Origin: a candidate division TA06 bacterium
Lineage (GTDB): Bacteria > Edwardsbacteria > AC1 > EtOH8
Assembly (NCBI GenBank): GCA_016208585.1
Contig: JACQXR010000039.1
Span: 7,163-71,162 of the forward strand
Direction: 5' to 3'
DNA length: 64,000 nt
The translations under genes were made by a program, and so were the position numbers. A model generated the notes under the pieces. The model saw only the letters and a list, made by a program, of their open reading frames with translations. It was not told where the DNA came from and searched no databases. Of this stretch, positions 13,992-33,696 are shown piece by piece; position 1 is the stretch's first letter; every line of letters starts with the position of its first letter.

Positions 13992-14014
13992 GGAAACAAA
14001 ATGTCATTATTAAT

Positions 14015-14722: not shown

Positions 14723-14729
14723 ACCTGGC

Positions 14730-16684: not shown

Positions 16685-18507
16685 AGCAGGGCTTTTCCAT
16701 AATCATCCCCACTTGCAACACCCTTCCTTATCTAAAACTTTGCTTGAAAAGTTTTAAGGACCACTCGGCTTATTCCCATCAGATAATAGTCTGCGCCGAC
16801 GGCTGCCGCGACGGCACCAACGAATTCCTGAGAACTTATCCCGGGATAGATGCCGTAATCCTGGACAAGAACCAGGGAATCTGCAGCGCTACCAACCAGG
16901 CCGCCCGTTTGGCCAACCGGGAATATCTGTTTCTGGCCAACGATGATTTAGTCGCCGCACCCGGCTGGGATCAGGCCCTGATGTCTCTGGCAACATCCGA
17001 CCGGATATTAAGCGGAGTCCAGATAGAGCCGGAATGGGTGCCGGTGGCGCCCTGCCACCTCAAGCAGGATTTCGGCCGGGTATTTGACGAATTTCGGGAA
17101 CCGGAATTCCTAAAATACGCTGCGGAGGAGAGCCGGCAGAAACAGGGGGTTGCAGAGGCAGGAGTAAATTATCCCTTTTTGGTCCACCGGGAATTATGGA
17201 ACCGGCTGGAGGGTTTGGATGAGCGGTTCAATCCCGGGCCGGGATCTGACCCCGACCTTTTCTACCGGCTGGCCCTGGGAGGGGCGGAATTCCTGCGGAT
17301 CCGTTCCTGTTTGTTCTACCATTTCGGAGGCCGGGCCTCGCGCTTTGCCGGCGAGTCGGGCCGCCAGTCAAATTCCTGGAAACAGGCCGCCGCCCGCAGC
17401 CGGGATGTTTTTTCTCAAAAATGGGGAAGGCCCTGGGATTTTGGTTTTGGGCAGGCGCCAAAAATAAAAAGGCCGGAATCCCTGGCCTTTTTCGTCTGGG
17501 GCGGCATCGGCAACATGATCATGGCCTTGCCGGCCATCGATGCCGCCAGAAAAGACCTACCGGAGGCCAAGATCACAGTGATTGCCCAAAAGCAGATCAT
17601 GCTGCAGTTGGTTCCGCCTGAAATTCAAAGTACAGTGGCGCTTAATGATCCGAGCTACCGGGGCGCAACGGGATTATTGAAATTAATCAAAGACTTAAGA
17701 AAGATCAAACCCCGGATAACCTTAACCAGCCTGCCTTTCCCCCCAATTAGATATGGCCTTCTGGCCCTGATCTCTGGCGCCCGGGACCGGGTATGTCCAA
17801 AAGCAAATAAAATTCCGGGCTGCAACCTGAAAATACAAACCGGGGGGAAACATTATCTGGAGCGCAATCTGGAACTGCTGCGGCCGGCGGGCATCGACCG
17901 GAAATTCCGAGGCTACAATTTAGCGCTGGTCCAGGATGAAATAAAACAGGCAGATGAATTCTTACGGCGGCAGAAAATAGACAGTTCAAAACGGGTCGGT
18001 CTGCATCCCGGAGCGGGGCATCCCCGGAAACGATGGGCCAAAGAGAGTTTTGTTGCCTTGGGAAAAATCTTAACAGGGCGGGGATTTTACCTGCTGGTCT
18101 TCGGCGGCCCGGAGGAAAAGCAGTTGGCGGATTATCTGGCTTCAAGCATCGGATCCAGCGCTTATTCCTGGGTTGGAAATCATGAGTTCAGGGCCACGCT
18201 GGCATTAATCAGAAGCTGCCGGGCCTTTATTTCCAACGACAGCGGCCTGGCCCATTGCGCTGCAGCATTGGCGGTTCCCACCCTTACCATTTTCGGCCCT
18301 ACCGATCCGGCCTTAAGCCGGCCTTACGGCCAGATGGCCAGGGTGGTTCAAAGTCCGGTAAAATGCGGCCCCTGCTATCGTCCGGCCAATAGATACGGTT
18401 GCCGGCAATGTGATCCGCGGTGTCTTTCACAAATCTTTCCGGAACAAGTTTTAAAGGAATTTGAAACTTTGTGGCGGCAGTCAAAACCCAAGGAAAAAAC
18501 AATTTGA
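16681..18507 (+). CDS. Bifunctional glycosyltransferase: N-terminal GT2 fused to C-terminal GT9 (heptosyltransferase-like).
   Basis: FSIIIPTCN...DGCRDGT, a DxD region, and NDDL indicate GT2. The C-terminus has GLHPGAGHPRKRW...NDSGLAHCAAALAVPTLTIFGPTDP, which is GT9. Confidence 0.8.
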   Translation: MKQGFSIIIPTCNTLPYLKLCLKSFKDHSAYSHQIIVCADGCRDGTNEFLRTYPGIDAVILDKNQGICSATNQAARLANREYLFLANDDLVAAPGWDQALMSLATSDRILSGVQIEPEWVPVAPCHLKQDFGRVFDEFREPEFLKYAAEESRQKQGVAEAGVNYPFLVHRELWNRLEGLDERFNPGPGSDPDLFYRLALGGAEFLRIRSCLFYHFGGRASRFAGESGRQSNSWKQAAARSRDVFSQKWGRPWDFGFGQAPKIKRPESLAFFVWGGIGNMIMALPAIDAARKDLPEAKITVIAQKQIMLQLVPPEIQSTVALNDPSYRGATGLLKLIKDLRKIKPRITLTSLPFPPIRYGLLALISGARDRVCPKANKIPGCNLKIQTGGKHYLERNLELLRPAGIDRKFRGYNLALVQDEIKQADEFLRRQKIDSSKRVGLHPGAGHPRKRWAKESFVALGKILTGRGFYLLVFGGPEEKQLADYLASSIGSSAYSWVGNHEFRATLALIRSCRAFISNDSGLAHCAAALAVPTLTIFGPTDPALSRPYGQMARVVQSPVKCGPCYRPANRYGCRQCDPRCLSQIFPEQVLKEFETLWRQSKPKEKTI

Positions 18508-18591
18508 CCAAGACCTAATTGACCAAGGTATAAAATTATTGACTTTTAACATATCTTGTGTTATCATAATCTGTTATAAATCAAGGTTATA

Positions 18592-19791
18592 GTGAAGGTA
18601 TTATTTTTTGATCATTCACCGGTTTACGGCGGGGCCGAGCAAAGCCTGCTTTCAATTTTACCGGCCTTAAAACCGCCAATAGCGCCGGTTTTGCTGGTTT
18701 TACCCGACAGCATTCTGGTTAAAAAAGCCCGGGAACTGAAAATAAGATTCCGGACGATAAACTTAAGCCCCAGGCTTGCCTCTTTGCCCCAGGCCCGGCT
18801 GGCAAAAAATATTTTTAATCCGCTTTTATGGAGGGATATCTCCCGGACCAAAAGGGCTTTGGCAGATGCGGTTCAAAAAGAAAAAGCCGACTTGGTTTAT
18901 GCCAATACCCTGAAATCCGTCATCCTGCTGGGTCTCTGCAGCAAAAAGATCCCCCAGCCGCAGGTGTGGCATATCCGAGATATCGTCTCCGGCCTGCCGG
19001 CGGTTTTGCTGTGGCGGGTTGGCCGGATCAGCAGTCCCAAAGTCATAGCTGTTTCCCGGGTTGCCGCCGGCCAGCCGGCTTTGAAGTTCAGCGCCACTGC
19101 TCCGACAGTGATCCACAATGGAATAGATCAGGAAAAATGGATATTTGACAGCCGACAGCAAAAGCCTGACGAGGTCAAAGCCCGGTTGGGAATTAAGCCG
19201 GGAGAATCTTTGATTGGCGTTTTTGGCCAGCTTTCGGCCTGGAAGGGGCAGGAACACGCCATCCAGGCCTTGGCCCACCTTAAGCGGCGGGGATTTTTGT
19301 GCAAACTGCTTTTGGCCGGTGACGCCATTTTTGCCGGGCAGGGATATCCTGAAAAACTGAAGAGTTTAGCCGGATCCTTGAATATCTCCGAAGATGTGAT
19401 ATTTTCCGGCTGGTTAGAAAACGCCGCTCCCTATATGATGGCGGCCGATATCATTGTTCACACTCCGGTAAAGCCGGAGCCTTTCGGCCGGGTGCTGATC
19501 GAGGCCATGGCTTTGGGCAAGCCGGTGGTGGCCATTAAAAACGGAGGGATTCCCGAGATCATCGACCACGGGCGGAGCGGATTGCTGCTGGAAAGCCACC
19601 AGGAACTGCCTTTTGTGCTGGAACGGCTTTTATGCCAGCCGGCCCAGGCCAAGGCTTTGGGTGATGAAGCCCGGCGCCAGGTTGAATTGAGGTTCAAGCT
19701 GTCGGATACGGTTTCAAGAGTCTCGGATTTCTTAACGGGGGCGTTCTCAAATATTTCCAGAACAAGTTTAAAGGGTTTTGAAATTTTGTAG
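18592..19791 (+). CDS. Glycosyltransferase family 4.
   Basis: GTG start. FFDHSPVYGGAEQ and the EX7E region (HTPVKPEPFGRVLIEAMALGKPVVA) are present. Confidence 0.8.
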   Translation: MKVLFFDHSPVYGGAEQSLLSILPALKPPIAPVLLVLPDSILVKKARELKIRFRTINLSPRLASLPQARLAKNIFNPLLWRDISRTKRALADAVQKEKADLVYANTLKSVILLGLCSKKIPQPQVWHIRDIVSGLPAVLLWRVGRISSPKVIAVSRVAAGQPALKFSATAPTVIHNGIDQEKWIFDSRQQKPDEVKARLGIKPGESLIGVFGQLSAWKGQEHAIQALAHLKRRGFLCKLLLAGDAIFAGQGYPEKLKSLAGSLNISEDVIFSGWLENAAPYMMAADIIVHTPVKPEPFGRVLIEAMALGKPVVAIKNGGIPEIIDHGRSGLLLESHQELPFVLERLLCQPAQAKALGDEARRQVELRFKLSDTVSRVSDFLTGAFSNISRTSLKGFEIL

Positions 19792-20099
19792 CGGCAGCCA
19801 AATCTACAATAATAAACAGACTGAATGAGACTTAGTTTTATTGACTTTTACTGATGGGAGCGGATACCCTTCACCGGACTAAATATCGGTCATATTCAGG
19901 GCAAGCTCTGTGGTGAGCGACTTGTACTGAGCTTGCCGAAGTAAGCCGAACCAATAGTGGACCTGGTTTGACAAGCCTTGGCGGAGTTTGACAGCAATTT
20001 AGATCCAGCCCTATTAACCAATTGGGGTTGTTCGGAAAATAACCGGTCAGTACTGCACCCAGTTAAATTAAAATCTGTTATTTCAAAGGATATGATAAT

Positions 20100-22121
20100 A
20101 TGAAAGAAACATTGAAGAATCTATTTTTTATAGCTGCGCTGCTGTTCTTCCAAAGCGCCCTGGCTCAGGATGCGGCCAAGGCAATCACTGAGGCCGGCCT
20201 GACGGTTCCTGACGCGGTTGATAAGGCCAAAGAGGTTGGTTATTCCGACCAGGAAATCCTCAAAGCCATTGAACAGGCCAAAAATGAGGGAAAGGTTCCG
20301 GTGGAGCAGCCATCTGTTCCGGATGAAAAGAGAATCAAAGAAACTCTTGGCCTAAGCCGGACTTTTCAAGAAATACAAAATGCCGTCTTCGAAAGCTACA
20401 ATATCATAACGACCCCCAAATACAGGCTGTTTGCCCTGCCGCCGTTTGGCTACGAGATATTCAACAATCCCCCTGCCAGCTTTGAGCCGCTGGACTACGG
20501 TCCGGCCGATCCCAACTACCAGATCGGCCCGGGCGATGAATTGGCCGTAAGCCTTTACGGAGACGTCCAGTATTCCAACACTTTTAAGGTTGACCGCGAA
20601 GGAAAGATCACCATACCCGAGGCGGGTATTATTATCGTTAACGGAGAGACTTTGGCCGCGGCAAGCAAAAAGATCGTCGAACGGCTGTCATTGGTCTATT
20701 CAGGCATAAGATCCAGGTCAATATCGGCAGACATAACGCTGGGAAAACTAAAACGGATCAAGATATTCGTCATGGGCGAGGTTCGGCAGCCCGGTGGCTT
20801 TACCATCTCCAGCACCAACACCGCTTTTACCGCCCTTTATTATGCCGCCGGTCCGACCAATCAGGGATCCCTGCGGAGGGTGCAGGTCCTGCGGAACAAT
20901 AAAACCATTGCCACTATTGACCTGTACGATCTGATCCTCAAAGGTAAAAAGGACAGCGATATCCGGCTGCAGAATGGGGATGTGGTCTACGTGCCCCTGG
21001 CCCCCAAAAAGGTTGCCATTCCCAGAGGGGTTTACCGTCCGGGCATCTACGAGCCTTTGCCCGGGGAAGGTTTAAAGGCGGTCCTGGCGTTGGCCGGAGG
21101 CTTGCGCCCCGATGCCTACACCGATATCATCCAGATCAACCGCACCGGCAAGGACGGACTTGTCAAACTGATAGACCTGCCCTCTAAGGAAATTGCCGGA
21201 TCCGCCGCCGAATATGACCTGGAGAGCGAGGACGTGATAGGCATTTACAAGGTGCCGGAAGGGGTGGACAATATCGTCCAGATCAACGGATTGGTGCTGA
21301 TACCGGGGACCTATCAGATAACCGACAGCACTACCCTGGGGGATCTGATAACCAAGGCCGGCGGCCTGCTGAAGATTGCCTATCAACCGCGGGCCGAAGT
21401 ATCGCGGATACTGTTTTATGCCCGGCCCGAGTCGACGGTTACCTTCATCCTTAACCTAGACAGCGAGGCCGACCTGTCCTTTCCCCTGAAATTCCGGGAC
21501 AAGGTGATCGTAAGACAGGATCCCGATTACCACTTACAGAAGGGGGTCACCATCGACGGGATGGTCCATTTCCCGGGATATTATTCGCTGACCGCCGAGG
21601 GCGAGAGGCTCTCCAGCGTCATCAAGCGGGCCGGGGGACTGAAGCCGCTGGCTTACCCCGAGGGAAGCATTTTTAGCCGGGCCGGGGCGGGGCAGATAGA
21701 CGTCAACCTGGCTAAGGCCCTGAGCAATAATGGCAGCCTGCATGATGTGGTAATGCGAGACGGCGATGCGCTGTCGGTCCCGGAGATGCCATCCACGGTG
21801 AATGTCATTGGCGCGGTGCGGTTTCCGGTCAATACTCTCTACGAACGGGGGCAGGGGTATAAGTACTACCTGGAAAAGGTGGGCGGCGCCACCGAAGAGG
21901 CCGACCGTAAAAGGATAACCGTCAGGCTGCCCAACGGGCGCAATATGAAGCCAAAAACTTTCTTTGGGCTGGTTCAAAGGGATATTCCTCCCGGCGCCTC
22001 GATCATCGTGCCCCGGAAAAAGGAAAGCACAGACATCAACTGGGGCGATGTCCTCCAAAATACAGCGGCAATTATATCGACTGCCGTAATGACCATAGCG
22101 GTAATCCGACAATATAAATAA
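20100..22121 (+). CDS. Polysaccharide export protein (Wza-like) with multiple SLBB domains and a signal peptide.
   Basis: Signal peptide, the Poly_export motif (YQIGPGDELAVSLYGD) and repeated SLBB-like units (GDVVYVP, GDALSVPE). Confidence 0.8.
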   Translation: MKETLKNLFFIAALLFFQSALAQDAAKAITEAGLTVPDAVDKAKEVGYSDQEILKAIEQAKNEGKVPVEQPSVPDEKRIKETLGLSRTFQEIQNAVFESYNIITTPKYRLFALPPFGYEIFNNPPASFEPLDYGPADPNYQIGPGDELAVSLYGDVQYSNTFKVDREGKITIPEAGIIIVNGETLAAASKKIVERLSLVYSGIRSRSISADITLGKLKRIKIFVMGEVRQPGGFTISSTNTAFTALYYAAGPTNQGSLRRVQVLRNNKTIATIDLYDLILKGKKDSDIRLQNGDVVYVPLAPKKVAIPRGVYRPGIYEPLPGEGLKAVLALAGGLRPDAYTDIIQINRTGKDGLVKLIDLPSKEIAGSAAEYDLESEDVIGIYKVPEGVDNIVQINGLVLIPGTYQITDSTTLGDLITKAGGLLKIAYQPRAEVSRILFYARPESTVTFILNLDSEADLSFPLKFRDKVIVRQDPDYHLQKGVTIDGMVHFPGYYSLTAEGERLSSVIKRAGGLKPLAYPEGSIFSRAGAGQIDVNLAKALSNNGSLHDVVMRDGDALSVPEMPSTVNVIGAVRFPVNTLYERGQGYKYYLEKVGGATEEADRKRITVRLPNGRNMKPKTFFGLVQRDIPPGASIIVPRKKESTDINWGDVLQNTAAIISTAVMTIAVIRQYK

Positions 22122-22220
22122 GACAGTCTCCTAACAGGGAATCCGGGTGGGCATCTTCCAACAGCAGGCCATGGAAGATCAAAGATTGACATAAAATTAA
22201 CCCAAGGAGTTTGATAACTT

Positions 22221-22425
22221 ATGGACAACATTCAACTGACCAAAGGTCCGGATTTTGATATTGATGCGCTTTTGAAGCATCTGGGCATTTTTTTTGATGC
22301 CCTGGAAAAAAACAGCAATATTCTGCATTGCCATTACGGCAATAACAGCAGTGGTCCTGTTTATTATGCCAAATCACTATACTGCGCAGGCCACCATCTT
22401 TGCCATCAAGCAAATCAAGCAATAA
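22221..22425 (+). pseudogene. N-terminal remnant of a Wzz/PCP chain-length-determinant gene, frameshifted in a T8/A7 homopolymer tract.
   Basis: Frame 1 reads MDNIQLTKGPDFDIDALLKHLGIFF. After the tract ggcattttttttgatgccctggaaaaaaac, a second frame reads KTAIFCIAITAITAVVLFIMPNHYTAQATIFAIKQIKQ*, the canonical Wzz TM1 plus the P.YTA.A motif. Confidence 0.5.
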
Positions 22426-22492
22426 TAGGTTTCCGGCCGGCCCCTGAAACATGCCCCAAGAGGATCAAAACGATGAAAAGGAGAATCCATTG

Positions 22493-23530
22493 ATGGATAA
22501 TGAAACCCGTAAAAACATCATTAATCAAGAAGCCGTTTATCATTATCTCAACATCATTCTGGCCAACTGGAGAAGGATGGCGATGTTCATGGGGGCGGCG
22601 CTGTTAATTTCGGCCGCAGTATTGCTAATAACTCCCAATTACTACGTTTCACAAGTCACCATTCTGCCCGCCGGCAAAAGCTCCTTTTCGGGGCTGATGA
22701 ACCTGGCTTCGGAGCTGGGTTATTCATCATCGGGCGAGGTCATTATCAATTCTCCTCAGGTCATTTTCCGGATAGTGCGCAGCCGCATACTGTCCGAGAT
22801 GCTCGGCAAGCGGGTCTATTTTCACAGCGGCAAAAACCGCGCCCTAATGCTCCATGAGGTTTTTAAGATAAAGGAAAAGGATCCGGCGCGGAGAGAATAC
22901 TTTACTCATCTGGCTTTAAACCGGGCCATGACCACCAGCATAGATGCCCGGATCAAGAGCCTGGATATTTCTTTAAAAGTAGATGACCCGCAGATAGCCG
23001 CGGAACTAATGAATGCCATAGTCGAGGAGCTTGATAATTACAATATCTTGTACCGGAACAATAAAGCCAAAATGAACCGGGAATTCGTTGAGAAAAGGCT
23101 GAAAGACACAGGCGATTCGCTGGCAAAATACGAAGAGGCGCTGAGGCTGTTCAGGGAAGAGAACCGCAACGTAGCTCAATCACCCATGCTCATGCTAAGG
23201 CAGCAGAGGCTGGTCAGAAGAGTAAATGTCAGCTATGAGCTATACCTGCTATTAACCAAAGAATACGAAACCGCCAAGCTTCAGGAGGTCAGGGACACCC
23301 CGGTGCTGGATATCATTGAAAGGGCCAGGCCGCTGCCGGTAAAGAGCGGCCCGGTAAGGAGAAAAGCCCTGATGACGGTGTTTCTTCTGGCCCTAGTCTC
23401 GGGTTTGTTTTTTCTGCTGGCCGGCGAGCATCTTAAAAAATCCGGGATCATCGTTCGGCTTCGCCAGCTGGAAGGATATCGGGCAATATCCCGGGACCTG
23501 TCCGCTGTTTTCAAAAGGCTCCGGGGATGA
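22493..23530 (+). CDS. Wzz-like polysaccharide co-polymerase (chain-length determinant).
   Basis: RBS aaaaggag lies 7 nt upstream. N-terminal TM plus PNYYVSQVTIL, a periplasmic coiled region, and a C-terminal TM (LMTVFLLALVSGLFFLLAGE). Confidence 0.65.
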   Translation: MDNETRKNIINQEAVYHYLNIILANWRRMAMFMGAALLISAAVLLITPNYYVSQVTILPAGKSSFSGLMNLASELGYSSSGEVIINSPQVIFRIVRSRILSEMLGKRVYFHSGKNRALMLHEVFKIKEKDPARREYFTHLALNRAMTTSIDARIKSLDISLKVDDPQIAAELMNAIVEELDNYNILYRNNKAKMNREFVEKRLKDTGDSLAKYEEALRLFREENRNVAQSPMLMLRQQRLVRRVNVSYELYLLLTKEYETAKLQEVRDTPVLDIIERARPLPVKSGPVRRKALMTVFLLALVSGLFFLLAGEHLKKSGIIVRLRQLEGYRAISRDLSAVFKRLRG

Positions 23531-23584
23531 ACTTCAGGTACCGGCCGGCCGGATTCCATAATCAGATAATGAGGCCTGTTTAGA

Positions 23585-25384
23585 ATGTGCGGCATCTGCG
23601 GGATAGTGTCTCTCGGCCGGGAAGGACCGCCGGTGGATTCGAAAGAACTGCTGAGGATACGCGACAGGATGGCCGTCCGGGGGCCGGACGAAGCGGGGTT
23701 GTGGACTTCGCCTGACCGCAAAGCGGCCTTGGGCCACCGCCGACTTTCCATCATAGACCTGAGCCGGCAGGCGTCCCAGCCCATGACCGACGACAGCGGG
23801 CGATACGCCATAGTCTTTAACGGCGAGATATACAACTACCGGGACCTGCAAAGGCAGCTGTCCGGGTCGGGCCATAAATTCAGGAGCAACAGCGACACCG
23901 AGGTTTTGCTGGCCCTGTATGCCCAGATGGGCGCCGGCATGCTGGATTCTTTGCGGGGAATGTTCGCCCTGGCCATCTGGGATGACAGTGATAAGCGCCT
24001 TTTCCTGGCCCGGGATCATTTCGGCATAAAACCGCTGTATTACTCAAGGGACGGCAGATATTTCCGTTTTGCCTCCCAAGTCAAGGCCCTGCTGGCCGGA
24101 GGCAAGATCTCAAGCCGGGCAGACCAGGCTGGGCAGGCCGGTTTTCTGACCCTGGGGTATGTGCCGGAGCCCCACACTACATTTGAAAGCATCCAGGCTT
24201 TGCCGGCCGGGACTGCCAAAATGATCGGCCGATCGGGCCGGGAACGGGACATAAAGTATTTCGAGCTGACTAATGAATTAACCGGAGCCGAAGTATCTTT
24301 TAAGGAATCCTTTCAACCGGCTCTCCCCGTGGAAGAATTACAGTCAGCCTTCAGGGATTCCGTAAATTATCACTTGGTTTCGGACGTGCCGGTGGGGGTG
24401 TTTCTTTCATCCGGAGTAGATTCCACCACAATCGCTGCTTTGGCCTCCGAGCATAAAGCCGATATCAAAACAGTGACCCTGGGCTTTGCCGAATTTAAGG
24501 GAAAAGAAAACGACGAAGTCCCTCTGGCCGAAAAGACGGCCGCTTTGTTAGAGACCGATCATACTTCAAGTTGGATATCCCGGAGCGATTTTACCGGGCA
24601 ACTGGAAAAACTGCTGGAAGCCATGGATCAACCCTCTATCGACGGAGTCAACACTTACTTTGTCAGCCGGGCGGCCTCTCAGATAGGACTAAAAGTTGCA
24701 TTGTCTGGGCTAGGCGGAGATGAACTGTGCGGCAGCTATTCCAGCTTCAGGCATATTCCCCAAATGACCGCTTGGTTCAAAGGCTGGAAGGATCATCGCA
24801 AATTGGCTGGAAATATCCGCCGGCTGGCTAGTCCGATGTTAAAATCTTTTATCTCTCCCAAATATGCCGGGCTTTTTGAATACGGGGGGTCTTATGGCGG
24901 GGCATATCTCTTAAGAAGGGGGCTTTTTATGCCCTGGGAATTGCCGGGACTAATGGGAAAAGATGAGGCCGAAAGGGGCTGGGCCGATTTGAACTTATTA
25001 AACCGCCTGGAGAACGCAGTGGAGCCGATAAAGGCTCCCCGCCTGAAAGTTGCCGCGCTGGAGCTCTCCTGGTATATGAAAAACCAGCTTTTGAAGGATT
25101 CGGACTGGGCCGGCATGGCCCATTCCCTGGAGATTAGGGCGCCCTGGGTGGATGTAAAACTTTTCCGGGCCCTGTTGCCGTTCATGGCAAGGGGGAAAGT
25201 GGATAAAACCTCATTGCTTTCCAGCGTCATCAACACATTGCCGCCTGAAATAAGAAGCAGAAAAAGAACCGGTTTCTCGGTTCCGGTCAGAAACTGGCTG
25301 ATGGAAGAAATCCCGGCCCGCCGCAAGGCGTGGGGATTGAGAGATTGGGCCAGACTTTTACACAATAAATGGGTTAATATATGA
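23585..25384 (+). CDS. asnB: Asparagine synthase (glutamine-hydrolysing)-type amidotransferase, probably a glycan amidotransferase of WbpS type.
   Basis: MCGICGI is the class II glutaminase N-terminus. SGGVDSTTIAAL is the PP-loop (SGGxDS). It lies in a glycan locus. Confidence 0.85.
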   Translation: MCGICGIVSLGREGPPVDSKELLRIRDRMAVRGPDEAGLWTSPDRKAALGHRRLSIIDLSRQASQPMTDDSGRYAIVFNGEIYNYRDLQRQLSGSGHKFRSNSDTEVLLALYAQMGAGMLDSLRGMFALAIWDDSDKRLFLARDHFGIKPLYYSRDGRYFRFASQVKALLAGGKISSRADQAGQAGFLTLGYVPEPHTTFESIQALPAGTAKMIGRSGRERDIKYFELTNELTGAEVSFKESFQPALPVEELQSAFRDSVNYHLVSDVPVGVFLSSGVDSTTIAALASEHKADIKTVTLGFAEFKGKENDEVPLAEKTAALLETDHTSSWISRSDFTGQLEKLLEAMDQPSIDGVNTYFVSRAASQIGLKVALSGLGGDELCGSYSSFRHIPQMTAWFKGWKDHRKLAGNIRRLASPMLKSFISPKYAGLFEYGGSYGGAYLLRRGLFMPWELPGLMGKDEAERGWADLNLLNRLENAVEPIKAPRLKVAALELSWYMKNQLLKDSDWAGMAHSLEIRAPWVDVKLFRALLPFMARGKVDKTSLLSSVINTLPPEIRSRKRTGFSVPVRNWLMEEIPARRKAWGLRDWARLLHNKWVNI

Positions 25385-26064
25385 AATTGGTCCGAGTCTG
25401 CGATCATACATTCATCTGCGATTGGCTGAATGATAATTCCGTATTATTGGATTGCGGGGTGAATCATGGCGATTTCTCCAAGTGGATAGAAATGAACATT
25501 GGGTGTTCTATCTATGGTTTTGAGCCTGACCCGGGGTTGTTTATACATCTTCCGCAAATAGCCAAGGCTCAGTTTTTCCCCGTTGCCATTTTAGATAAGA
25601 TAGGCGAGATGCCCTTGAATTTAGGCACAAATATTTGCAGCAGCTTAATATTCAAAGAAACTCCGAAGCAGGATGTTCGGCGGGTAAAAACAACAACCTT
25701 GGAAAGCTTTTGTCAGCAACGTAATATTCAACAGATAGACTTTTTGAAATTGGATATTGAAAGAGCTGAAATCGGAGTGCTTGAAAATGTGAAACCCGAT
25801 ATGTTGCGACAGATTGTTCAAATAACGGTGGAATTCCATGACCATCTTGACATAAGGGAAAGACCGAAAATAAAAAGGGTGATTAAGAGGCTGAACAGGT
25901 TGGGCTTTTATTGTATTCGTTTCTCCTTTTTTAAATATACGGACACTCTTTTCATCAATAGTTATTTAGCTCCCTTATCACCAATTGATCTGTTATGGCT
26001 TAATGTAAAAAGCTTTTCCCTGGGTCTAAAAAGATATATGTATAGAATGTTTATGCGAAAATAA
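25381..26064 (+). CDS. FkbM-family methyltransferase.
   Basis: LLDCGVNHGDFS and FLKLDIERAEIGVL are present. The gene is AT-rich. Confidence 0.65.
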   Translation: MKLVRVCDHTFICDWLNDNSVLLDCGVNHGDFSKWIEMNIGCSIYGFEPDPGLFIHLPQIAKAQFFPVAILDKIGEMPLNLGTNICSSLIFKETPKQDVRRVKTTTLESFCQQRNIQQIDFLKLDIERAEIGVLENVKPDMLRQIVQITVEFHDHLDIRERPKIKRVIKRLNRLGFYCIRFSFFKYTDTLFINSYLAPLSPIDLLWLNVKSFSLGLKRYMYRMFMRK

Positions 26065-26095
26065 ATGAGAGCGCTGTTTTTTACTACCGAGGCAT

Positions 26096-26362
26096 TTGGC
26101 GGGCATGGCACATTCCTTGGAGATAAGGGTGCCCTGGGTTGATGTCAAGCTTTTTCGGACATTGTTGCCGTCAATAGCAAAAGGTGAATTGGGTAAAGGA
26201 TCGTTGCTTTCCACCGTTGCCGATATGCTGCCGCCGGATATTGGAAGCAGGAAGAAAACCGGGTTTTCGGTCCCGGTAAGGGAGTGGTTGATGAAGGGAA
26301 ACCAAAATTCCATGACGAGGGGATTAAGAAAATGGGCGAAAATAATAAAGGACAATTATTAA
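26096..26362 (+). pseudogene. Duplicated C-terminal fragment of the AsnB-type gene.
   Basis: MAGMAHSLEIRVPWVDVKLFRTLLP..TGFSVPVREWLM compares with the asnB C-terminus WAGMAHSLEIRAPWVDVKLFRALLP..TGFSVPVRNWLM. Nucleotide identity with 25098-25384 is roughly 80%. Confidence 0.75.
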
Positions 26363-26368
26363 GGTAGT

Positions 26369-27166
26369 ATGAATAAATGTAAGTTTTGTGACAATAACTT
26401 ATCAATATTTTCCGAATCATATTTGCAATGCACGCATTGCGATATTCTTATTAGCAGTCTTCCGGAAGGCTCTTATGACGCAAAATATTATTATGTTGAA
26501 AATTATCGATCTAAGGAGACCCAATTTAGATCAAAACAATTATTTAAATATTTCAAGCAATATATAGGAGAAAAAAAATGCCTTGATTTCGGTTGTAATG
26601 ACGGTTCGTATGTGCTGTATTCAAGAGCAAAGGGGATTGATTGTATCGGGATAGATATAAACAAATATGTTATGGCGAAGAATAAATCTCATTCACCCGA
26701 TATATTTTTTCATCCCGATGAAATCAGGTCGAAATTTTCTTGCGTTACGGCTTTTGATGTTATTGAGCATTTTGATGATATAAATGTTTTTTTTCATGAG
26801 ATTGAACGCTTTGTGGATAGCACCGGCATGCTGATTTTTACAACGCCGAATGTACACAGTAAGTGGATTAAAATATATAAGAAGGGTTGGCACGGATACG
26901 GCATTCCGAAGTATCATAGGTATATTTTTTCGGTAGGTTTTTTAAAAAATATTCTAATGGCAAAAGGATTTAATGTTGATGCCGTTTTTACAGTAGCGCC
27001 AATTGATAAAAATGGATTTAGTTTATTGGTGCGTTCTGGCTATAGATTAAAAAAGAAAAAAATCGAAAAATTATTATTGCTGCCGGTCGCAATTATAAAA
27101 TATTTATTGGGTAATTTCAAAAATGGACAAGAGGATACGATTTGCATCGTTGCTCGGAAAAAATAA
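26369..27166 (+). CDS. Class I SAM-dependent methyltransferase with an N-terminal Cys4 zinc ribbon.
   Basis: CKFCDN...CTHCD is the zinc ribbon. LDFGCNDGSY is motif I. GC content is very low. Confidence 0.65.
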   Translation: MNKCKFCDNNLSIFSESYLQCTHCDILISSLPEGSYDAKYYYVENYRSKETQFRSKQLFKYFKQYIGEKKCLDFGCNDGSYVLYSRAKGIDCIGIDINKYVMAKNKSHSPDIFFHPDEIRSKFSCVTAFDVIEHFDDINVFFHEIERFVDSTGMLIFTTPNVHSKWIKIYKKGWHGYGIPKYHRYIFSVGFLKNILMAKGFNVDAVFTVAPIDKNGFSLLVRSGYRLKKKKIEKLLLLPVAIIKYLLGNFKNGQEDTICIVARKK

Positions 27167-28235
27167 GAACTTACTGGGTGCACGTAAAGTATTAATTTAT
27201 AGATTAGGTAGCCTTGGCGATACAGTTATTGCCTTGCCGCTTTTTCATCTCATTCAGCGTGTTTTTCCAAGCGCTGGAATTGCAGTTTTATCAGCCAATG
27301 TTACTGATAGCAAAGCTATTTCAGTAAAATCATTGCTTGATGGATCAGGCTTGGTTCATCAGTACATTAATTATCAAGTAAGACTTAGGAACTTGAAGGA
27401 TATATATGGTTTAAGACAAAGAATAAGGGATTATAATCCTGATGTACTTATATATTTAACCGAGCCCCGAGGCCGGTTCTCAATTTACCGTGACACAGCT
27501 TTCTTTTACTTCTGCGGCATAAAATGCATTATCGGCGCTCCATTGTCTGCGGACAAATTAAATAACAGTTTTGATGAAGCAAATGGTTTGTATGAAAATG
27601 AAACGGAAAGATTGGCACGGTGTTTGTCCGTGTTGGGTGATGCGCATTTGGAGTTGATGGAGAATTGGAGTTTACGTCTTTCAAAGGAGGAAGAGCATAA
27701 GGCGGATAATTTATTAAAACAAAATAGAGCGGTCTCAAAATTTATTGTTTTTGGATTGGGCACTAAGATAAAATCGAAGGATTGGGGGCAATCAAACTGG
27801 CAAAATTTGATTGCCAAATTATCCGAGAAATTCTATGACTATGCCGTAGTATTTATTGGCGCAAAGGATGAATATGATTATTGTGATAGTGTTGGCAGGT
27901 TTTGGAAGAATGATAAAATAAATTTATGCGGTCTTACCAAACCCAGAGAAGCTGCCGCAATTATAAAAAAAGCGGCAGTGTACATCGGACATGATTCCGG
28001 GTCAATGCATTTAGCCGCAGCACAGGGGATTCCGATTGTAGCGATATTTAGTTCTCGAGCAAAACCGGGCATTTGGTTTCCTTATTGGAGCAGACAAAAT
28101 ATTCTTTTTAATAGTATTAAATGCCAGGGGTGTTTATTGGATAATTGCCCAAAAGACAACAAATGTATAAAAATGACAACGGTAGATAAAGTATATTTAA
28201 AAATTGAAAAGGTTCTAAAATCAACCAGTTCTTAA
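27123..28235 (+). CDS. Glycosyltransferase family 9 (heptosyltransferase-like).
   Basis: VLIYRLGSLGDTVIALPLF and GHDSGSMHLAAAQGIPIVAIFS are present. Confidence 0.75.
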   Translation: MDKRIRFASLLGKNKNLLGARKVLIYRLGSLGDTVIALPLFHLIQRVFPSAGIAVLSANVTDSKAISVKSLLDGSGLVHQYINYQVRLRNLKDIYGLRQRIRDYNPDVLIYLTEPRGRFSIYRDTAFFYFCGIKCIIGAPLSADKLNNSFDEANGLYENETERLARCLSVLGDAHLELMENWSLRLSKEEEHKADNLLKQNRAVSKFIVFGLGTKIKSKDWGQSNWQNLIAKLSEKFYDYAVVFIGAKDEYDYCDSVGRFWKNDKINLCGLTKPREAAAIIKKAAVYIGHDSGSMHLAAAQGIPIVAIFSSRAKPGIWFPYWSRQNILFNSIKCQGCLLDNCPKDNKCIKMTTVDKVYLKIEKVLKSTSS

Positions 28236-28486
28236 AATACTTTATGGACCACTGTCTAATGAATTTACTGAACTTTGGCAAATTTACCAGGTCTACGTCA
28301 TTTTGAGAATTACTCCTTGCTTTGCCATTGAAAAATCAATATATTTTGTCAGATTCCCTTCATAAGCCATGCATGGCACTCATTTCAGGGCGGCGCTTCG
28401 ATTGTAAGGCTTGATGTTGCGCTCAGAATGACTCGATTAGTTTTTTTTCCAAAGTTGAGAAATTTATTCTTCCTTCGGAATACTAT

Positions 28487-28590
28487 GTCCGTTAGGGCGT
28501 AGATGAAGTGAATCCTGCAAAGCAGGACCGACGAAGTCTGAGATCAAGACTAAGATGCTATGGCCGTAAGGCCATAGTCATTCACTAACC
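28487..28590. repeat. Family 2 structured repeat element, copy C (GNRA-hairpin rich). An inverted copy lies at 53925-54036.
   Basis: Contains the hairpins tcctgc-aaa-gcagga, agtct-gagatca-agact and ctatggcc-gtaa-ggccatag. Its reverse complement aligns with 53925-54036. Confidence 0.7.
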
Positions 28591-28614
28591 ATTGAAAAAG
28601 CGATAGGTGTTAAA

Positions 28615-29883
28615 ATGAGAAAATTGTTTTTTCTATTGGGCTGGTTTTCTTTTGTTACCGCCGCCTGGGGAAGTCAAATCCCCGAAGCGGCCAATTTGGA
28701 AAACAAGCCTGCCAATCCGTGGACAGCATACCTGAACAATTCCGTTGACAGTGTAAAACAGATCTTTTTTGCCAACCAGGATACTGATAAACTATTGCTG
28801 CAATCGCCGTCAAATGACGGCTATGTCAACTTTAACTTGGCCCAGGGGCTACACCAAAACCCGGCAGGAGCCAGGTATAACCCGACGGCATATCTGGGCT
28901 GGAATGTAATGAACGGCGGGGCACGAGAAATAGCCGGGGAAGCTCAGGTTTTCGACAGTTGGGAACACCGCTTTGTTCCCCAAGTAGGCAAAACGTTGTT
29001 GGAGCGGCATTGGATCTTCGGTGGCGAGACAGGCAATAGTTATAGGCCAATATCTTCATCAATGCAGGTTGAGAACGAGTTGGTGGATCTATCTTTTTGT
29101 GCCGACGAAATAAATTTTTTTGATAAAACATCTACCTTCCAATATTTTATTTTGCGGGCCATCGGCAGCATAATCATTAATAATAAAAGCATTGAACATA
29201 CTATGAATGATGACCGTGCCTACTATATAAACCAAACCCTGCCTGCCACGAAAGATATTCAGGTTATATATGCTATGGGCGGCGCTAATATATGGAGCCA
29301 AAGAATAATGGCTGGAAGCTATGATTATTCCATATATAACATAACCCGAGGGCATGATTTATATATCAGAAATGCAGATGGTTTTGTTGGTATCGGGACG
29401 ACAACCCCCTTGGCAAGATTGGATGTAAACGGGGGAGTAAGGGCTAAAACTCTGCAGATAGGAGACAGTACTGTATATATAACCAAACAAAAATTCATAC
29501 GCAGAGACACATTATTTGAGGTGGTTAATTCGGATACCTTCTACATGCTTAAAAAAGGCGCAGTATCTGCAGTATCTGAAGATACTGTGCTGCCGGACAA
29601 AGAAAGTTACAATGCGCTGATGCAAAATTATCCAAACCCAGTATCAAATATTGCAAGGATAGAATATCGGTTAGCTAAAAATGGGCACGTAAAATTGGAT
29701 ATATATAACACGTTGGGGCAAAAGGTCAGAACATTGATTGATCGGAACATGCCTCCAGGCGCCCATGTGTCGGTATGGGACGGCAAGGATGATGAAGACA
29801 GAAAGGTCTCGGCCGGGATATATATATATAAATTGGAGGCGGATGATTTTAATGCCGTGCAAAAAATGATATTGATCAGGTAG
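28615..29883 (+). CDS. Secreted protein with a C-terminal T9SS sorting domain (Por_Secre_tail).
   Basis: Signal peptide (FFLLGWFSFVTAAWG). The C-terminal ~80 aa read NYPNPVSNIARIEYRL...LDIYNTLGQKVRTL...AGIYIYKL, which is a CTD. Confidence 0.7.
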   Translation: MRKLFFLLGWFSFVTAAWGSQIPEAANLENKPANPWTAYLNNSVDSVKQIFFANQDTDKLLLQSPSNDGYVNFNLAQGLHQNPAGARYNPTAYLGWNVMNGGAREIAGEAQVFDSWEHRFVPQVGKTLLERHWIFGGETGNSYRPISSSMQVENELVDLSFCADEINFFDKTSTFQYFILRAIGSIIINNKSIEHTMNDDRAYYINQTLPATKDIQVIYAMGGANIWSQRIMAGSYDYSIYNITRGHDLYIRNADGFVGIGTTTPLARLDVNGGVRAKTLQIGDSTVYITKQKFIRRDTLFEVVNSDTFYMLKKGAVSAVSEDTVLPDKESYNALMQNYPNPVSNIARIEYRLAKNGHVKLDIYNTLGQKVRTLIDRNMPPGAHVSVWDGKDDEDRKVSAGIYIYKLEADDFNAVQKMILIR

Positions 29884-30009: not shown

Positions 30010-31221
30010 TTGAAAATCAAAGATAAAAAACGTTTGGCATTCCTGGCTACCCATCCCATACAATATCAAGCTCCTTTGTTGCGAAGAATCGCTAAGGAGG
30101 AGGATATAGATTTAACGGTGTATTTTTGCAGCGATCTATCAGTAAGAGGCTATAAGGATCCGGGGTTTGGTAAAAAAATTGCCTGGGATACTGATCTACT
30201 TAGCGGATATTCCTATGAATTCCTGCCCATCGTAGACGGTAATAACAGCGTGACGACGTTGAGACCCTTCAACTATGGTTTACTGAAACGTTTAAAGAAA
30301 AAGAACATTGATGCTATTTTTATCAATGGCTATGCCCGCTGGTATAACCTTTGGGTCATCATCCAATCAAAGTCCGCAGGGATAAAGGTATTGATAAGGG
30401 ACGAAGCTACGCCCATCAGCGCCAGAAGAAATGCGATTAAAAAAATGCTGAAGCGCATTTTTTTTCAACTGCTGAACAAGCTATGCGATGGGTTTATGGC
30501 CATAGGCACGCTAAATCGGCAGTACTACCTTCAAAATGGCATACCTGCCGAGAAAATATTTATGATGCCCTACGCAGTGGACAACGATTACTTCCGGCAT
30601 TTGTCCGAAGAAGCCAAGGCGAAACGGCAGGAGTTTGCCCGTGAGTTGGGCGTCGATTCCCGGAGACCGGTGATACTTTATGCCAGCAAATTGACTCAAC
30701 GAAAGAGGGCCCAGGATTTGCTGGACGCCTATATCCTGCTTTCGCCCGATGGCCAGGCCGAGCCGGATCCATATCTTCTGGTTATTGGCGAGGGAGAGGC
30801 CAGGGCCTTTGTCGAGGAGAAGGCCCGGGCTAGGGGGTGGAATTCCATAAAGTTCTTGGGCTTTAAGAATCAGAGCGAACTTCCGGCCTATTTTGAGCTA
30901 TGCGATGTGTTTGTGCTGCCATCGGTTTATGAACCCTGGGGACTGGTGGTCAATGAGGCCATGAGCGCCGGCAGGGCGGTCATCGTATCGGACCAGGCGG
31001 GGTGCGGCCCGGACCTGGTGCAGGACGGCCGGAACGGATTTATTTTTAAGGCAGGCGATATATGGCAATTATCCGAGGCTTTAAAAAAAATTACGGGGGA
31101 TAGGGAGCTTGCCCGTTCTCTGGGCATGAAAAGCCGTGAAATAATAGGATCTTGGGGTATTGAACAGGACATTGTCGGGCTACGTAAGGCCATGGGATTA
31201 AAGCCGGGCGTTCCCGGGTAA
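30010..31221 (+). CDS. Glycosyltransferase family 4.
   Basis: VLPSVYEPWGLVVNEAMSAGRAVIVSDQAGCGPDLVQDGRNGF is an EX7E motif. Confidence 0.8.
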   Translation: MKIKDKKRLAFLATHPIQYQAPLLRRIAKEEDIDLTVYFCSDLSVRGYKDPGFGKKIAWDTDLLSGYSYEFLPIVDGNNSVTTLRPFNYGLLKRLKKKNIDAIFINGYARWYNLWVIIQSKSAGIKVLIRDEATPISARRNAIKKMLKRIFFQLLNKLCDGFMAIGTLNRQYYLQNGIPAEKIFMMPYAVDNDYFRHLSEEAKAKRQEFARELGVDSRRPVILYASKLTQRKRAQDLLDAYILLSPDGQAEPDPYLLVIGEGEARAFVEEKARARGWNSIKFLGFKNQSELPAYFELCDVFVLPSVYEPWGLVVNEAMSAGRAVIVSDQAGCGPDLVQDGRNGFIFKAGDIWQLSEALKKITGDRELARSLGMKSREIIGSWGIEQDIVGLRKAMGLKPGVPG

Positions 31222-32763: not shown

Positions 32764-33696
32764 TTGTCAGTGCGTTGCCTGATTCTGGGAGGCGCCGGTT
32801 TTATCGGCGCTAACGTCGCTAGATCCCTTGTGGAACAGGGTGATGCGGTTAGAATATTCGACCGGCCCAATGTTGATTTGAGCAATATTGCCGATGTTTC
32901 GGAGCACATTGAATTCATTGGGGGTGATTTTACTAACCCAAAGGATCTTAATGAAGCGCTGTCTGGAATTGATGTGGTCCTTCACCTTATTGGAACAACC
33001 TTGCCGGCTACCTCGGTTGCCAATCCGGTATATGATATAGAAACCAATGTTGTTGGCACTATTAAACTGCTCGAGTTGTGCTGCCAGAAAAAAACACAAA
33101 AAATTATTTTCCCTTCCTCCGGAGGTACAATTTACGGGCGCCCCCAGACGCTGCCGATACCTGAAACTCATCCCACCAACCCCGTCTGCTCATATGGCAT
33201 ATCAAAACTTGCCATAGAAAAATATCTTAGATTGTTCAACGAACTTTACGGATTGAAATATACGATTCTGCGGATAGCCAATCCATACGGGCGGTACCAA
33301 AACCAGTTTGGGCAGTTAGGGGCGGTTAATGTGTTTTTGTGGAAGACAATTACCGGCCAGCCTATCGTGATCTGGGGCGACGGCACTATCGCCAGGGATT
33401 ATTTTCATATCGATGACCTAGTGGGTGCGTTTCTTTTGGCGATAAAAAAGCCGACGAATTCGCATATTTTTAATATAGGCAGCGGCAAGGCGCATACTTT
33501 GAATGAAGTAATCTCATCAATAAGCGAGATAACGGGAATCAAGCCGGTGATTGAATATACAGCTGGACGTAAGTTCGACATTCCATCAAATTATCTTGAT
33601 ATAAGTAGAGCAGAGATAGAATTGGGATGGCGTCCCAGTGTGGATCTAGATAAAGGCCTTGTCCTTACCTGGGAATGGATGAAGACGCTTAAATGA
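32764..33696 (+). CDS. NAD-dependent epimerase/dehydratase (GalE-like extended SDR).
   Basis: ILGGAGFIGANVARSL is a Rossmann motif. The YxxxK motif (YGISKLAIEKY) is present. Confidence 0.85.
   Translation: MSVRCLILGGAGFIGANVARSLVEQGDAVRIFDRPNVDLSNIADVSEHIEFIGGDFTNPKDLNEALSGIDVVLHLIGTTLPATSVANPVYDIETNVVGTIKLLELCCQKKTQKIIFPSSGGTIYGRPQTLPIPETHPTNPVCSYGISKLAIEKYLRLFNELYGLKYTILRIANPYGRYQNQFGQLGAVNVFLWKTITGQPIVIWGDGTIARDYFHIDDLVGAFLLAIKKPTNSHIFNIGSGKAHTLNEVISSISEITGIKPVIEYTAGRKFDIPSNYLDISRAEIELGWRPSVDLDKGLVLTWEWMKTLK

Follow-up and report, generated by a model that had tools for sequence, protein, structure and literature searches.

Why does a polysaccharide gene cluster carry, downstream of an intact asnB, a second and truncated asnB 3' end? 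The cluster in question is of the Wza/Wzz type and lies in a 64,000-nt stretch of DNA (the window) from an uncultivated bacterium of the TA06/Edwardsbacteria group, an FCB-group lineage. The initial annotation described a low-GC insertion of 3 kb that comprises FkbM, zinc-ribbon methyltransferase and GT9 genes and is flanked by duplicated asnB ends. We compared the window with seven related loci that share a common framework and differ in slot content. The features of the region are as follows:

23585–25384, + strand: intact asnB-type glutamine amidotransferase gene, 599 aa (Pfam GATase_7/GATase_6/Asn_synthase)
25108–25384, + strand: 3' end of the intact asnB, repeat copy 1 (75% identical to copy 2 over 196 nt)
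25381–26064, + strand: FkbM-family methyltransferase ORF, 227 aa (Pfam Methyltransf_21, aa 24–176, E = 2.7e-15)
25953–26064, + strand: homologue of the spacer that precedes GT4a in L015 (blastn)
26065–26108, + strand: 5'-end relic of a lost GT4a gene, start codon plus 15 codons, MRALFFTTEAFGGHG (N-terminus alignment, blastx, blastn)
26098–26108, + strand: 11-nt junction microhomology, GGCGGGCATGG, with the crossover inside (sequence)
26098–26293, + strand: asnB relic, part 1, codons ~508–572 (90.3% nt identity over 196 nt to L005 4930–5125)
26294–26362, + strand: asnB relic, part 2, variable C-terminal tail (67% nt identity to L008, 35% to L005)
26369–27166, + strand: class I SAM methyltransferase, Methyltransf_23, MT23 (Pfam; 68% aa identity to L008 MT23)
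27123–28235, + strand: GT9 (heptosyltransferase-like) glycosyltransferase (Pfam; 69% aa identity to P0131, the L008 GT9)
28236–28614, no strand: 379-nt spacer after GT9, which contains or adjoins the right-hand junction
28615–29883, + strand: T9SS gene with C-terminal sorting domain (Pfam; 65–73% aa identity to all relatives)

A variable slot between asnB and the T9SS gene

The framework genes wza, wzz, asnB, the T9SS-tailed gene and p500 are conserved, with variable slots in between. The T9SS gene forms the right-hand border of the slot after asnB in all relatives, and the usual occupant of this slot is the glycosyltransferase gene GT4a, most relatives reading asnB-GT4a-T9SS gene. GT4a is found there in L002–L006 and L014, MT291 plus GT4a in L015, and MT23-GT9 in L008, L010 and L013. 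The slot of the window holds FkbM-relic-MT23-GT9, and we found no GT4a orthologue in the window. Two hallmarks of a mosaic cluster are therefore present: non-orthologous genes occupy the same slot across related genomes, and truncated remnants (a 15-codon GT4a stub and an 88-codon asnB relic) lie at a block junction. Divergence along the cluster is incongruent as well, with wza grouping the window with L002 and L008, wzz grouping L002, L005 and L015, and the relic grouping with L005. The nearest framework relatives of the window are L002, L005 and L015, all three with GT4a in the slot; its framework genes are 63–66% identical to those of L008 at the amino acid level.

The intact asnB has an N-terminal MCGICG and a PP-loop-like LSSGVDS. 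Its product is identical to the NCBI entry ‘asparagine synthase, candidate division TA06 bacterium’ (P0001) and 78% identical to an Edwardsbacteria orthologue. AsnB-GT4 and AsnB-GT9 fusions are common, and many bacteria have GT4a fused to such an AsnB; GT4a is 50–55% identical to the GT4 half of AsnB-GT4 fusions of ~958 aa. The GT9 of the slot shows ~30% identity to the GT9 domain of the AsnB-GT9 fusion proteins, compared to 21% to the other GT9 in the window.

Pfam bears out the annotated FkbM, zinc-ribbon methyltransferase (an N-terminal four-cysteine ribbon, CxxC...CxxC, in MT23) and GT9 genes, which do not form a single inserted unit. The segment 26098–28210, spanning the asnB 3' end, MT23 and GT9, is collinear with L008 11257–13367 at 72.8% nt identity over 2.1 kb; the GT9 homology starts at 27183. 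In L008, MT23 directly follows a full-length asnB and is in turn followed by GT9, and the gap between the asnB stop and the MT23 start is 9 nt, compared to 6 nt in the window. FkbM belongs with the intact asnB and the GT4a stub, which lies upstream of the relic. Its start overlaps the asnB stop (ATGA), and none of the seven related loci has an FkbM orthologue at the matching position. The Pfam domain of FkbM stops at aa 176 (about nt 25909), and from 25953, the right edge of FkbM-specific DNA, the window matches the L015 spacer (25953–26108 versus L015 12513–12667, 83.3% identity by blastn, E = 9.5e-41). The last ~34 FkbM codons derive from formerly intergenic DNA and are better annotated as an accidental read-through extension. 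The acquisition of FkbM is best read as a separate change that preceded the replacement of GT4a.

The described AT-richness holds for the genes: the GC content is 0.38 in FkbM, 0.33 in MT23 and 0.38 in GT9, versus 0.51 for the window as a whole (0.54 for the intact asnB). It does not extend to the relic, whose host-like GC3 of 0.56 differs from those of FkbM (0.43) and MT23 (0.31) on either side. Variable transferase and modification genes have a GC3 of 0.31–0.43 versus 0.60–0.66 in framework genes, and L008 behaves likewise. Low GC is not evidence of recency, because MT23-GT9 of L008 is equally AT-rich (GC3 0.27, beside an asnB at 0.55) and has diverged from that of the window (68–69% aa identity) nearly as far as the framework. 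The label ‘recent’ is acceptable only in a relative sense, on the grounds that the relic is undamaged. More generally, low GC is a poor sign of recent transfer, the AT-rich MT23-GT9 pair being present in a distant relative.

Origin and coding capacity of the asnB relic

The 88-aa C-terminal AsnB fragment that had been predicted is present as an ORF at 26096–26362, with a TTG start and an in-frame stop at 26066. It matches PF00733 (Asn_synthase, profile positions 229–304, E = 9.5e-11) and is 74% identical to the C-terminus of P0003, which confirms its homology to the C-terminus of the family. The asnB homology begins at 26098, not at 26083 as first reported; the nucleotides 26065–26108 are the GT4 gene stub. 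The two asnB ends do form a direct repeat (25108–25313 and 26098–26303, spaced 990 nt apart), but an identity of ~80% was an overstatement. A blastn search within the window gave 75% over 196 ungapped nt (E = 1.7e-33), and identity falls to 70.1% (183/261) at the nucleotide level and 61% at the amino acid level when all aligned positions are counted (26098–26362 versus 25108–25384), with a longest exact run of 10 nt.

The two ends are not duplicates of each other. In a codon alignment, relic part 1 is 89% identical to L005 and 64–74% identical to all others, including its own neighbor. Synonymous divergence gives the same picture, with a dS of 1.28 between the relic and the neighboring asnB and of 0.38 between the relic and L005 asnB. 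Because its first 196 nt are so close to L005 and the rest of the window is not (79% nt identity in the T9SS gene, 56% aa identity in wza), the relic looks foreign to both of its flanks; only the opening ~45 codons of the intact asnB, a conserved stretch, come as close to L005. Each type of asnB tail goes with a particular downstream cassette: tails of the GT4a type share 59–65% identity with each other, and the relic tail sides with L008. The tail of the intact asnB (about 25304–25384) had no close relative in this comparison.

The reading frame of the relic is undamaged, and relaxed constraint could not be detected; the dN/dS of the relic against L005 asnB is 0.14, within the range of 0.05–0.17 found for pairs of intact genes. 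Because the ORF is fully intact and a GAGG lies upstream (4 nt from the TTG and 13 nt from an ATG), it may be translated and have some function. However, the piece starts at family position ~508 and lacks both the Ntn glutaminase domain with its catalytic Cys2 and the PP-loop (SGGxDS-like; LSSGVDS in the intact gene), and it therefore cannot be catalytic. It is also out of frame with the GT4a start and would therefore be translated at most fortuitously. The relic ends 6 nt before the MT23 start, and its stop region likely carries the MT23 ribosome-binding site. Judging from the sequence, the 88-codon ORF is most likely a dead leftover and not a gene.

Could selection nevertheless maintain it as a small protein, such as a C-terminal AsnB module with a docking or helper role for MT23/GT9? 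The intact frame, the presence of all motifs conserved in the family, the low dN/dS and the NCBI annotation of the ORF as a hypothetical protein (P0121) speak for this idea. In its specific form, the last ~25–90 AsnB residues are a partner-specific docking or linker module, and the expressed 88-aa piece lets the imported MT23-GT9 work beside a non-cognate AsnB; this would account for the covariation of tails with GT4a or MT23-GT9 and for the frequent fusion of AsnB to GT4 or GT9. Yet a low dN/dS is equally expected for a piece recently cut from a working gene, simple linkage accounts for the co-segregation of the tails, and the piece has no native start. The initial annotation had proposed that a conserved small ORF in related genomes would count against a cassette footprint; every related locus that we compared lacks the fragment as a separate ORF. 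We therefore regard selection for a small protein as very unlikely and the stand-alone adaptor as a highly doubtful proposition.

The junction and its probable history

The remnant upstream of the relic resembles the N-termini of GT4a in L002 (MRILYLTTDAFGGHGG) and L015 (MRVLFLTTDAFGGYGG), with 11 of 15 residues identical by blastx (E = 7e-4) and 90% identity to L002 GT4a over 30 nt. A junk ORF of 25 codons now runs from the GT4a start to 26142. GT4a codon ~15 and asnB codon ~508 are joined out of frame within GGCGGGCATGG, which encodes GGHG in the GT4a 5' end and WAGMA in asnB, in differing reading frames; the same 11-mer recurs in two sets of intact genes, GT4a of L002 and asnB of L006, L008 and L014. 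The left junction thus joins sequences that are unrelated apart from a short microhomology, as in homology-facilitated illegitimate recombination (HFIR), and is best read as illegitimate and microhomology mediated. We infer that HFIR or an equivalent microhomology-mediated joining produced it. On the right, similarity to L008 stops at 28210 and the T9SS-gene similarity to all relatives restarts at ~28711, which would place the second junction within 28211–28710. The 379-nt spacer there yielded no relic by blastx and no credible RNA family by Rfam.

These observations suggest that the 88-codon ORF is probably a recombination scar and not a duplication, GT4a having been replaced by an imported segment that was joined at a microhomology at one end. 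The ancestor of the window would have carried asnB-FkbM-spacer-GT4a. A segment with a full-length second asnB followed by MT23-GT9, an arrangement still found in L008, would have arrived from another lineage and recombined at one end on the right, presumably after the GT9 stop and before the T9SS gene. Its other end would have been joined illegitimately in the 11-nt microhomology, near the GT4a start and at codon ~508 of the incoming asnB. This exchange would have deleted GT4a except for its start codon and 15 codons and added the last 265 nt of the incoming asnB together with MT23 and GT9. As part of the operon, the relic would now be transcribed passively, and its 3' end probably continues to provide the native ribosome-binding context of MT23. 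The glycan chemistry may have shifted from GT4 transfer to GT9 transfer and methylation, on top of the earlier methylation by FkbM. The microhomology of 11 nt, slightly above the 3–10 bp usual for HFIR, counts somewhat against this history. In the sampled genomes, we found no asnB-FkbM-GT4a locus and no highly identical match to either of the proposed parents, and the nearest MT23-GT9 is the one at 68–69% aa identity; searches of genome contigs with MT23 and with FkbM gave no match.

The same scar would also arise from transfer in the opposite direction. The second asnB and MT23-GT9 would then be resident, and an incoming (wzz-)asnB-FkbM-spacer-GT4a' segment would have overwritten the first ~1525 nt of that asnB, anchored by homology on the left in the asnB 5' part or wzz and joined at its right end, in GT4a, to the resident asnB at the same microhomology. 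This yields exactly the observed anatomy, and the 68–70% aa identity of MT23-GT9 and the relic to L008 is close to the framework value and would fit vertical inheritance from a shared ancestor. The closeness of the relic's first 196 nt to L005, which the window otherwise shows only in the first ~45 asnB codons, and the GT4a occupying the slot in all three nearest framework relatives make this reversal rather unlikely, although it deserves serious consideration.

Insertion of a low-GC cassette into asnB, with duplication of the 3' end in situ or homologous recombination at asnB, would make the copies flanking paralogues. This explanation is prompted by the direct orientation of the two ends at a spacing of 990 nt and by the AT-rich DNA that separates and follows them, but the ends have diverged strongly (dS ~1.3) and each is nearer to genes of other lineages. 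The GT4a stub between FkbM and copy 2 makes the junction GT4a::asnB and not asnB::asnB. The copies, moreover, flank FkbM only; MT23 and GT9 come after the second copy, outside the repeats, and adjoin an intact asnB elsewhere. We consider such an insertion extremely unlikely. The initial view of the fragment as the mark left by cassette replacement in a mosaic glycan locus is supported; the visible junction lies at an 11-nt microhomology and was not made by homologous recombination at asnB. Simple tandem or in-situ duplication was also tried and rejected: the copies are not each other's closest relatives, the relic being 89–90% identical to L005 and 74–75% to its neighbor.

The contig is metagenome assembled, and the junction is observed in this one MAG contig, an independent Logan contig of the same population stopping at 25636, inside FkbM. 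This break, and the clear polymorphism of the locus among lineages, could mean that the contig is chimeric, assembled from two co-occurring strains that differ in their slot alleles. However, the 11 nt at the junction and the runs of at most 10 identical nt between the asnB ends are much shorter than any k-mer used in assembly, and the assembly graph would not be expected to mis-join there. The stretch from FkbM through spacer, GT4a stub and relic to MT23 is also continuous, with tight gene spacing, and we hold an assembly artefact to be very improbable.

Relation to known cassette exchanges

Replacement of GT4a would imply a swappable slot with the conserved asnB 3' part on one side and the T9SS-tailed gene on the other, in which the asnB tail travels with the cassette and at least one swap proceeded by a microhomology junction and not by clean homologous exchange. 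The case provides a nearly base-resolved example of surface-glycan cassette exchange in an uncultivated FCB-group lineage, and HY768_03180 is better treated as a pseudogene fragment. Scars of this type are ordinary in surface-polysaccharide loci and reflect a known kind of event, and our findings will not surprise specialists in such loci.

The galactose-initiated O-antigen clusters of Salmonella likewise have a conserved framework in which low-GC genes for glycosyltransferases and modification have been swapped; segments of unlike GC and divergence adjoin, and non-functional remnants, such as those of wzy and the H-repeat, lie at junctions (PMC3715488). The TA06 locus differs in its uncultivated host, in its AsnB-type amidotransferase as anchor gene and in its junction, where stubs of two unrelated genes are fused directly at a microhomology; the window has no IS or H-repeat. 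In the cps island of Neisseria meningitidis, an intact galE1 and a truncated galE2 (Regions D and D') border horizontally acquired capsule genes, for which illegitimate recombination into a resident gene has been proposed (PMC5349592). The TA06 locus shares this pairing of an intact gene with a 5'-truncated copy of different ancestry. In the meningococcus, the copies span kilobases in inverted orientation and mediate inversion, whereas those described here are direct, ~265 nt long and 70% identical, and further recombination between them is unlikely because no exact run exceeds 10 nt.

In HFIR, as summarized in PMC6382021 (citing de Vries & Wackernagel 2002), foreign DNA in Acinetobacter baylyi, S. 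pneumoniae and P. stutzeri is anchored by homology at one end and joined at the other at microhomologies of 3–10 bp, replacing resident DNA and leaving a fused junction. The TA06 scar has the microhomology-fused junction of that account and probably also the replacement of resident DNA; it differs in the 11-nt length, and its mechanism is proposed from the scar itself. Like other AsnB-type amidotransferases of glycan loci, the intact gene combines Ntn-glutaminase and Asn_synthase domains within a polysaccharide cluster, whereas the relic retains the last ~88 residues, devoid of every catalytic element.

Gene order and the repeated asnB end

The polysaccharide biosynthesis and export cluster runs from 20.1 to about 40 kb, with every gene on the + strand:

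20100-22121, +, Wza-like exporter
22451-23530, +, Wzz-like protein
23585-25384, +, AsnB-type amidotransferase, 599 aa
25381-26064, +, FkbM methyltransferase
26096-26362, +, 88-codon ORF matching the C-terminal part of Asn_synthase only
26369-27166, +, Methyltransf_23 enzyme with N-terminal CxxC...CxxC (MT23)
27123-28235, +, GT9 glycosyltransferase
28615-29883, +, protein with a T9SS sorting tail
from 30010 on, +, further GT4s, an epimerase and others

A candidate division TA06 MAG encodes the identical AsnB (P0001), and the 88-codon ORF (hereafter the relic) is recorded at NCBI as hypothetical protein HY768_03180 (P0121). The initial annotation was largely right in what it observed, with its numbers and geometry in need of correction. 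The asnB 3' end is directly repeated, 25108-25313 matching 26098-26303 at a spacing of 990 nt (blastn, 75% over 196 ungapped nt, E=1.7e-33). The ~80% identity first given to the copies is too high, as the whole alignment yields 70.1% over 261 nt (protein, 61%; longest exact run, 10 nt), and asnB homology starts at 26098 rather than 26083. FkbM alone sits between the copies, which do not flank a single 3-kb insertion. Repeat-mediated excision or phase variation of FkbM is unlikely, because an exact match of at most 10 nt falls short of what RecA substrate requirements would suggest. The AT-richness was confirmed, with GC of 0.38 in FkbM, 0.33 in MT23 and 0.38 in GT9 against 0.54 in asnB and 0.51 in the window; the relic, lying between FkbM (GC3 0.43) and MT23 (0.31), has a host-like GC3 of 0.56.

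Several further features of the cluster were noted. A 28-nt imperfect inverted repeat, 75% complementary, spans the GT9 stop (28175-28256) ahead of the 379-nt spacer and may act as a weak transcription terminator or attenuator; a consensus terminator scan made no call there, and promoter and terminator scans performed no better than shuffles. An Rfam scan of 25-29 kb returned only one sub-threshold miRNA match, at this repeat, which is noise. Other variable slots lie at 30010-31221 and 32764-35061: the gene 3' of the T9SS-tailed gene is a GT4 non-orthologous to the GT4b-epimerase pair of relatives, and the interval between the p501 gene and GT4c holds two extra genes, an epimerase (32764-33696) and a GT4 (33901-35061). 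Upstream, a 608-aa ORF (16681-18507) fuses a GT2 to a GT9 domain; GT2, Zn-ribbon methyltransferase and GT9 are separate genes in another order in L002, L006, L008 and L015 (compared with window 14015-19791). A Glyco_trans_1_2 gene (14730-15713) is extra in the window, and a ~404-aa gene upstream of wza is missing.

The slot downstream of asnB in related loci

AsnB has its closest homologues (65-78% aa) in Candidatus Edwardsbacteria and on metagenome contigs. These related loci share the framework wza-wzz-asnB-[slot]-T9SS gene-...-p500-GT4c-p282-p352, which is 61-80% (aa) identical to the window in L002 and 50-66% in L008. Its slot, the variable region between asnB and the T9SS-tailed gene, differs in content:

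Contents of the slot in the window and in related loci
L002-L006 and L014: one GT4 (GT4a, 360-370 aa)
L015: a 291-aa methyltransferase and GT4a
L008, L010 and L013 (four independent samples): MT23 (267 aa) and GT9 (347 aa), directly after full-length asnB
Window: FkbM, relic, MT23 and GT9

The window holds no orthologue of GT4a, the canonical partner of this AsnB clade. In many ~958-aa proteins AsnB is fused to a GT4 domain, with which GT4a shares 50-55% identity. Other fusions join AsnB to a GT9 domain; the window GT9 is about 30% identical to that domain and 21% to the window's other GT9. Fusions of ~958-1000 aa to a GT4 or GT9 domain form a large share of the closest AsnB homologues (P0008-P0118), which argues from sequence that AsnB and the downstream glycosyltransferase act as a unit.

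The relic belongs to a single aligned block in which window 26098-28210 corresponds to L008 11257-13367 (asnB 3' end, MT23 and GT9; 72.8% nt). Amino acid identity to L008 is uniform along it (relic 70%, MT23 68%, GT9 69%; framework genes, 63-66%), and the asnB stop and the MT23 start are separated by 6 nt (window) or 9 nt (L008). MT23-GT9 is equally AT-rich in L008 (GC3 0.27, beside an asnB with GC3 0.55), so the low GC is an old, lasting property of this cassette and no sign of recent arrival, and it does not date the transfer as had been proposed. The variable genes of Salmonella O-antigen clusters show the same pattern, with 28-37% GC in genomes that average 51-52% (PMC3715488).

As judged from their divergence, the two asnB ends of the window are not duplicates of each other. 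In codon alignments, the first 66 codons of the relic are 89% identical (nt) to L005 asnB (blastn, 90.3% over 196 nt), 74% to the adjoining intact asnB and 64-72% to others; the next-best pairs in the whole identity matrix reach 80-82%. Correspondingly, dS is ~1.3 between the relic and the neighbouring asnB and 0.38 between the relic and L005. The affinity changes beyond the conserved KTGFSVPVREWLM segment (about nt 26293): over the final ~22 codons, identity is 67% to L008 and 35% to L005. The asnB tails of GT4a-bearing loci cluster together (59-65%), indicating that the tail moves together with the cassette downstream of it. Discordance within the gene is generally greatest over the C-terminal ~90 aa (P0001 versus P0002, 81% N-terminal and 59% C-terminal). 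These patterns suggest, but do not prove, recurrent crossovers in the conserved 3' segment of asnB. A left crossover was sought within the intact asnB by sliding-window identity; the variable middle of the gene is L002-like, and no clean breakpoint was found near codon 508.

Across the group, sequence comparison depicts the whole locus as a recombination mosaic, with discordant gene trees from one part of the cluster to the next. The wza genes group the window, L002 and L008 (66-73% aa) against 55-56% to L005, L006 and L015. L002 and L005 are close to each other (86-90% aa) in both wzz and the T9SS-tailed gene, in which the window is 63-78% identical to all of these loci; in wzz, L015 is 93% identical to L002, and L008 and L014 share 85%. 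Between GT9 and the T9SS-tailed gene, L008 carries a GC-rich (0.60) stretch (13491-14430) with a minus-strand remnant of an IS30-like transposase HTH, a mobile-element trace beside the MT23-GT9 cassette with nothing comparable detectable in the window.

Searches for relatives of individual slot genes returned little. Genome contigs scanned with MT23 and with FkbM contained no relatives, a metagenome scan with MT23 gave a single irrelevant match (27%, L007), and neither the 88-aa ORF nor FkbM had an exact protein match on record. The homologues retrieved with the 88-aa ORF were short ORFs only. Two on long contigs, P0125 and P0123 (L016 4772-6357; L017 1165-2969), were rejected as comparable scars: each is the downstream half of an asnB gene split in two (418/419 aa plus 118/107 aa), probably through a frameshift or sequencing error. 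Both loci also carry transposases.

The GT4a-asnB junction and the state of the relic

A stub of GT4a precedes the relic. Window 25953-26108 matches L015 12513-12667 (83%, E=9.5e-41), which comprises the spacer upstream of GT4a and its first 44 nt, and window 26079-26108 matches the beginning of L002 GT4a at 90%. ATG 26065 opens MRALFFTTEAFGGHG, resembling the GT4a N-termini MRILYLTTDAFGGHGG (L002) and MRVLFLTTDAFGGYGG (L015). The last ~34 codons of the FkbM ORF, whose Pfam domain ends at aa 176, correspond to spacer DNA in L015. GT4a passes into asnB at GGCGGGCATGG (26098-26108), an 11-mer also present in intact GT4a (L002) and intact asnB (L006, L008 and L014). The reading frame is not kept across the junction: from the GT4a start a 25-codon peptide runs to a stop at 26142, and the asnB frame, closed by a stop at 26066, offers only internal starts, TTG 26096 or ATG 26105. 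A Logan assembly of SRR12113406 is 100% identical over window 19929-25636 and ends inside FkbM, so the junction rests on one contig. A graph mis-join is nonetheless unlikely, because the 11 nt shared at the junction and the ≤10-nt exact matches between the copies are far below assembler k-mers.

The relic lacks the glutaminase domain, the PP-loop and a native start, and no related locus carries it as a separate ORF. Its dN/dS against L005 (0.14) falls inside the range of intact gene pairs (0.05-0.17), as a fragment of a functional gene would if severed recently on the scale of a dS of 0.38; from 7.7 observed nonsynonymous differences, we would roughly limit the neutral period to about 0.06 substitutions per site. 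We consider it very improbable that the relic is a small adaptor protein, and its 3' end probably still supplies the ribosome-binding context of MT23.

Proposed replacement history and known parallels

The anatomy is asnB / FkbM / ex-spacer / GT4a(1-44) :: asnB*(~1525-end) / MT23 / GT9 / 379-nt spacer / T9SS gene, where asnB* is the presumed full-length source allele of the relic. The simplest history would have two steps. FkbM would have entered between asnB and GT4a, a sub-slot occupied in L015 by another methyltransferase. An asnB*'-MT23-GT9 segment from another lineage would then have replaced GT4a, its left end joined illegitimately at the 11-nt microhomology and its right end resolved somewhere in 28211-28710, an interval with no detectable breakpoint. 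The spacer at 28236-28614 yielded neither a GT4a 3' relic nor a relic of the L008 274-aa/IS30-like region. The same anatomy would arise in reverse, had a left-anchored asnB-FkbM-GT4a' segment entered a resident asnB*-MT23-GT9 locus; we rate this direction lower, as only the relic nears 90% identity to L005 (the conserved 5' end of the intact asnB aside) and GT4a is present in the window's nearest framework relatives. Replacement of GT4a by the incoming segment retains the initial reading of a cassette-replacement scar but not of a single repeat-flanked 3-kb insertion, nor of homologous recombination at asnB, since the joint is GT4a::asnB, out of frame, at 11-nt microhomology.

Homology-facilitated illegitimate recombination would fit this scar. 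PMC6382021, which summarises de Vries & Wackernagel 2002, Prudhomme 2002 and Meier & Wackernagel 2003, describes a process yielding this kind of product, and we propose the mechanism from the form of the scar. The window scar, which has a parallel in the truncated galE2 adjoining the meningococcal cps island (PMC5349592), is a clear new example, in an uncultivated lineage, of a well-known phenomenon of polysaccharide loci.
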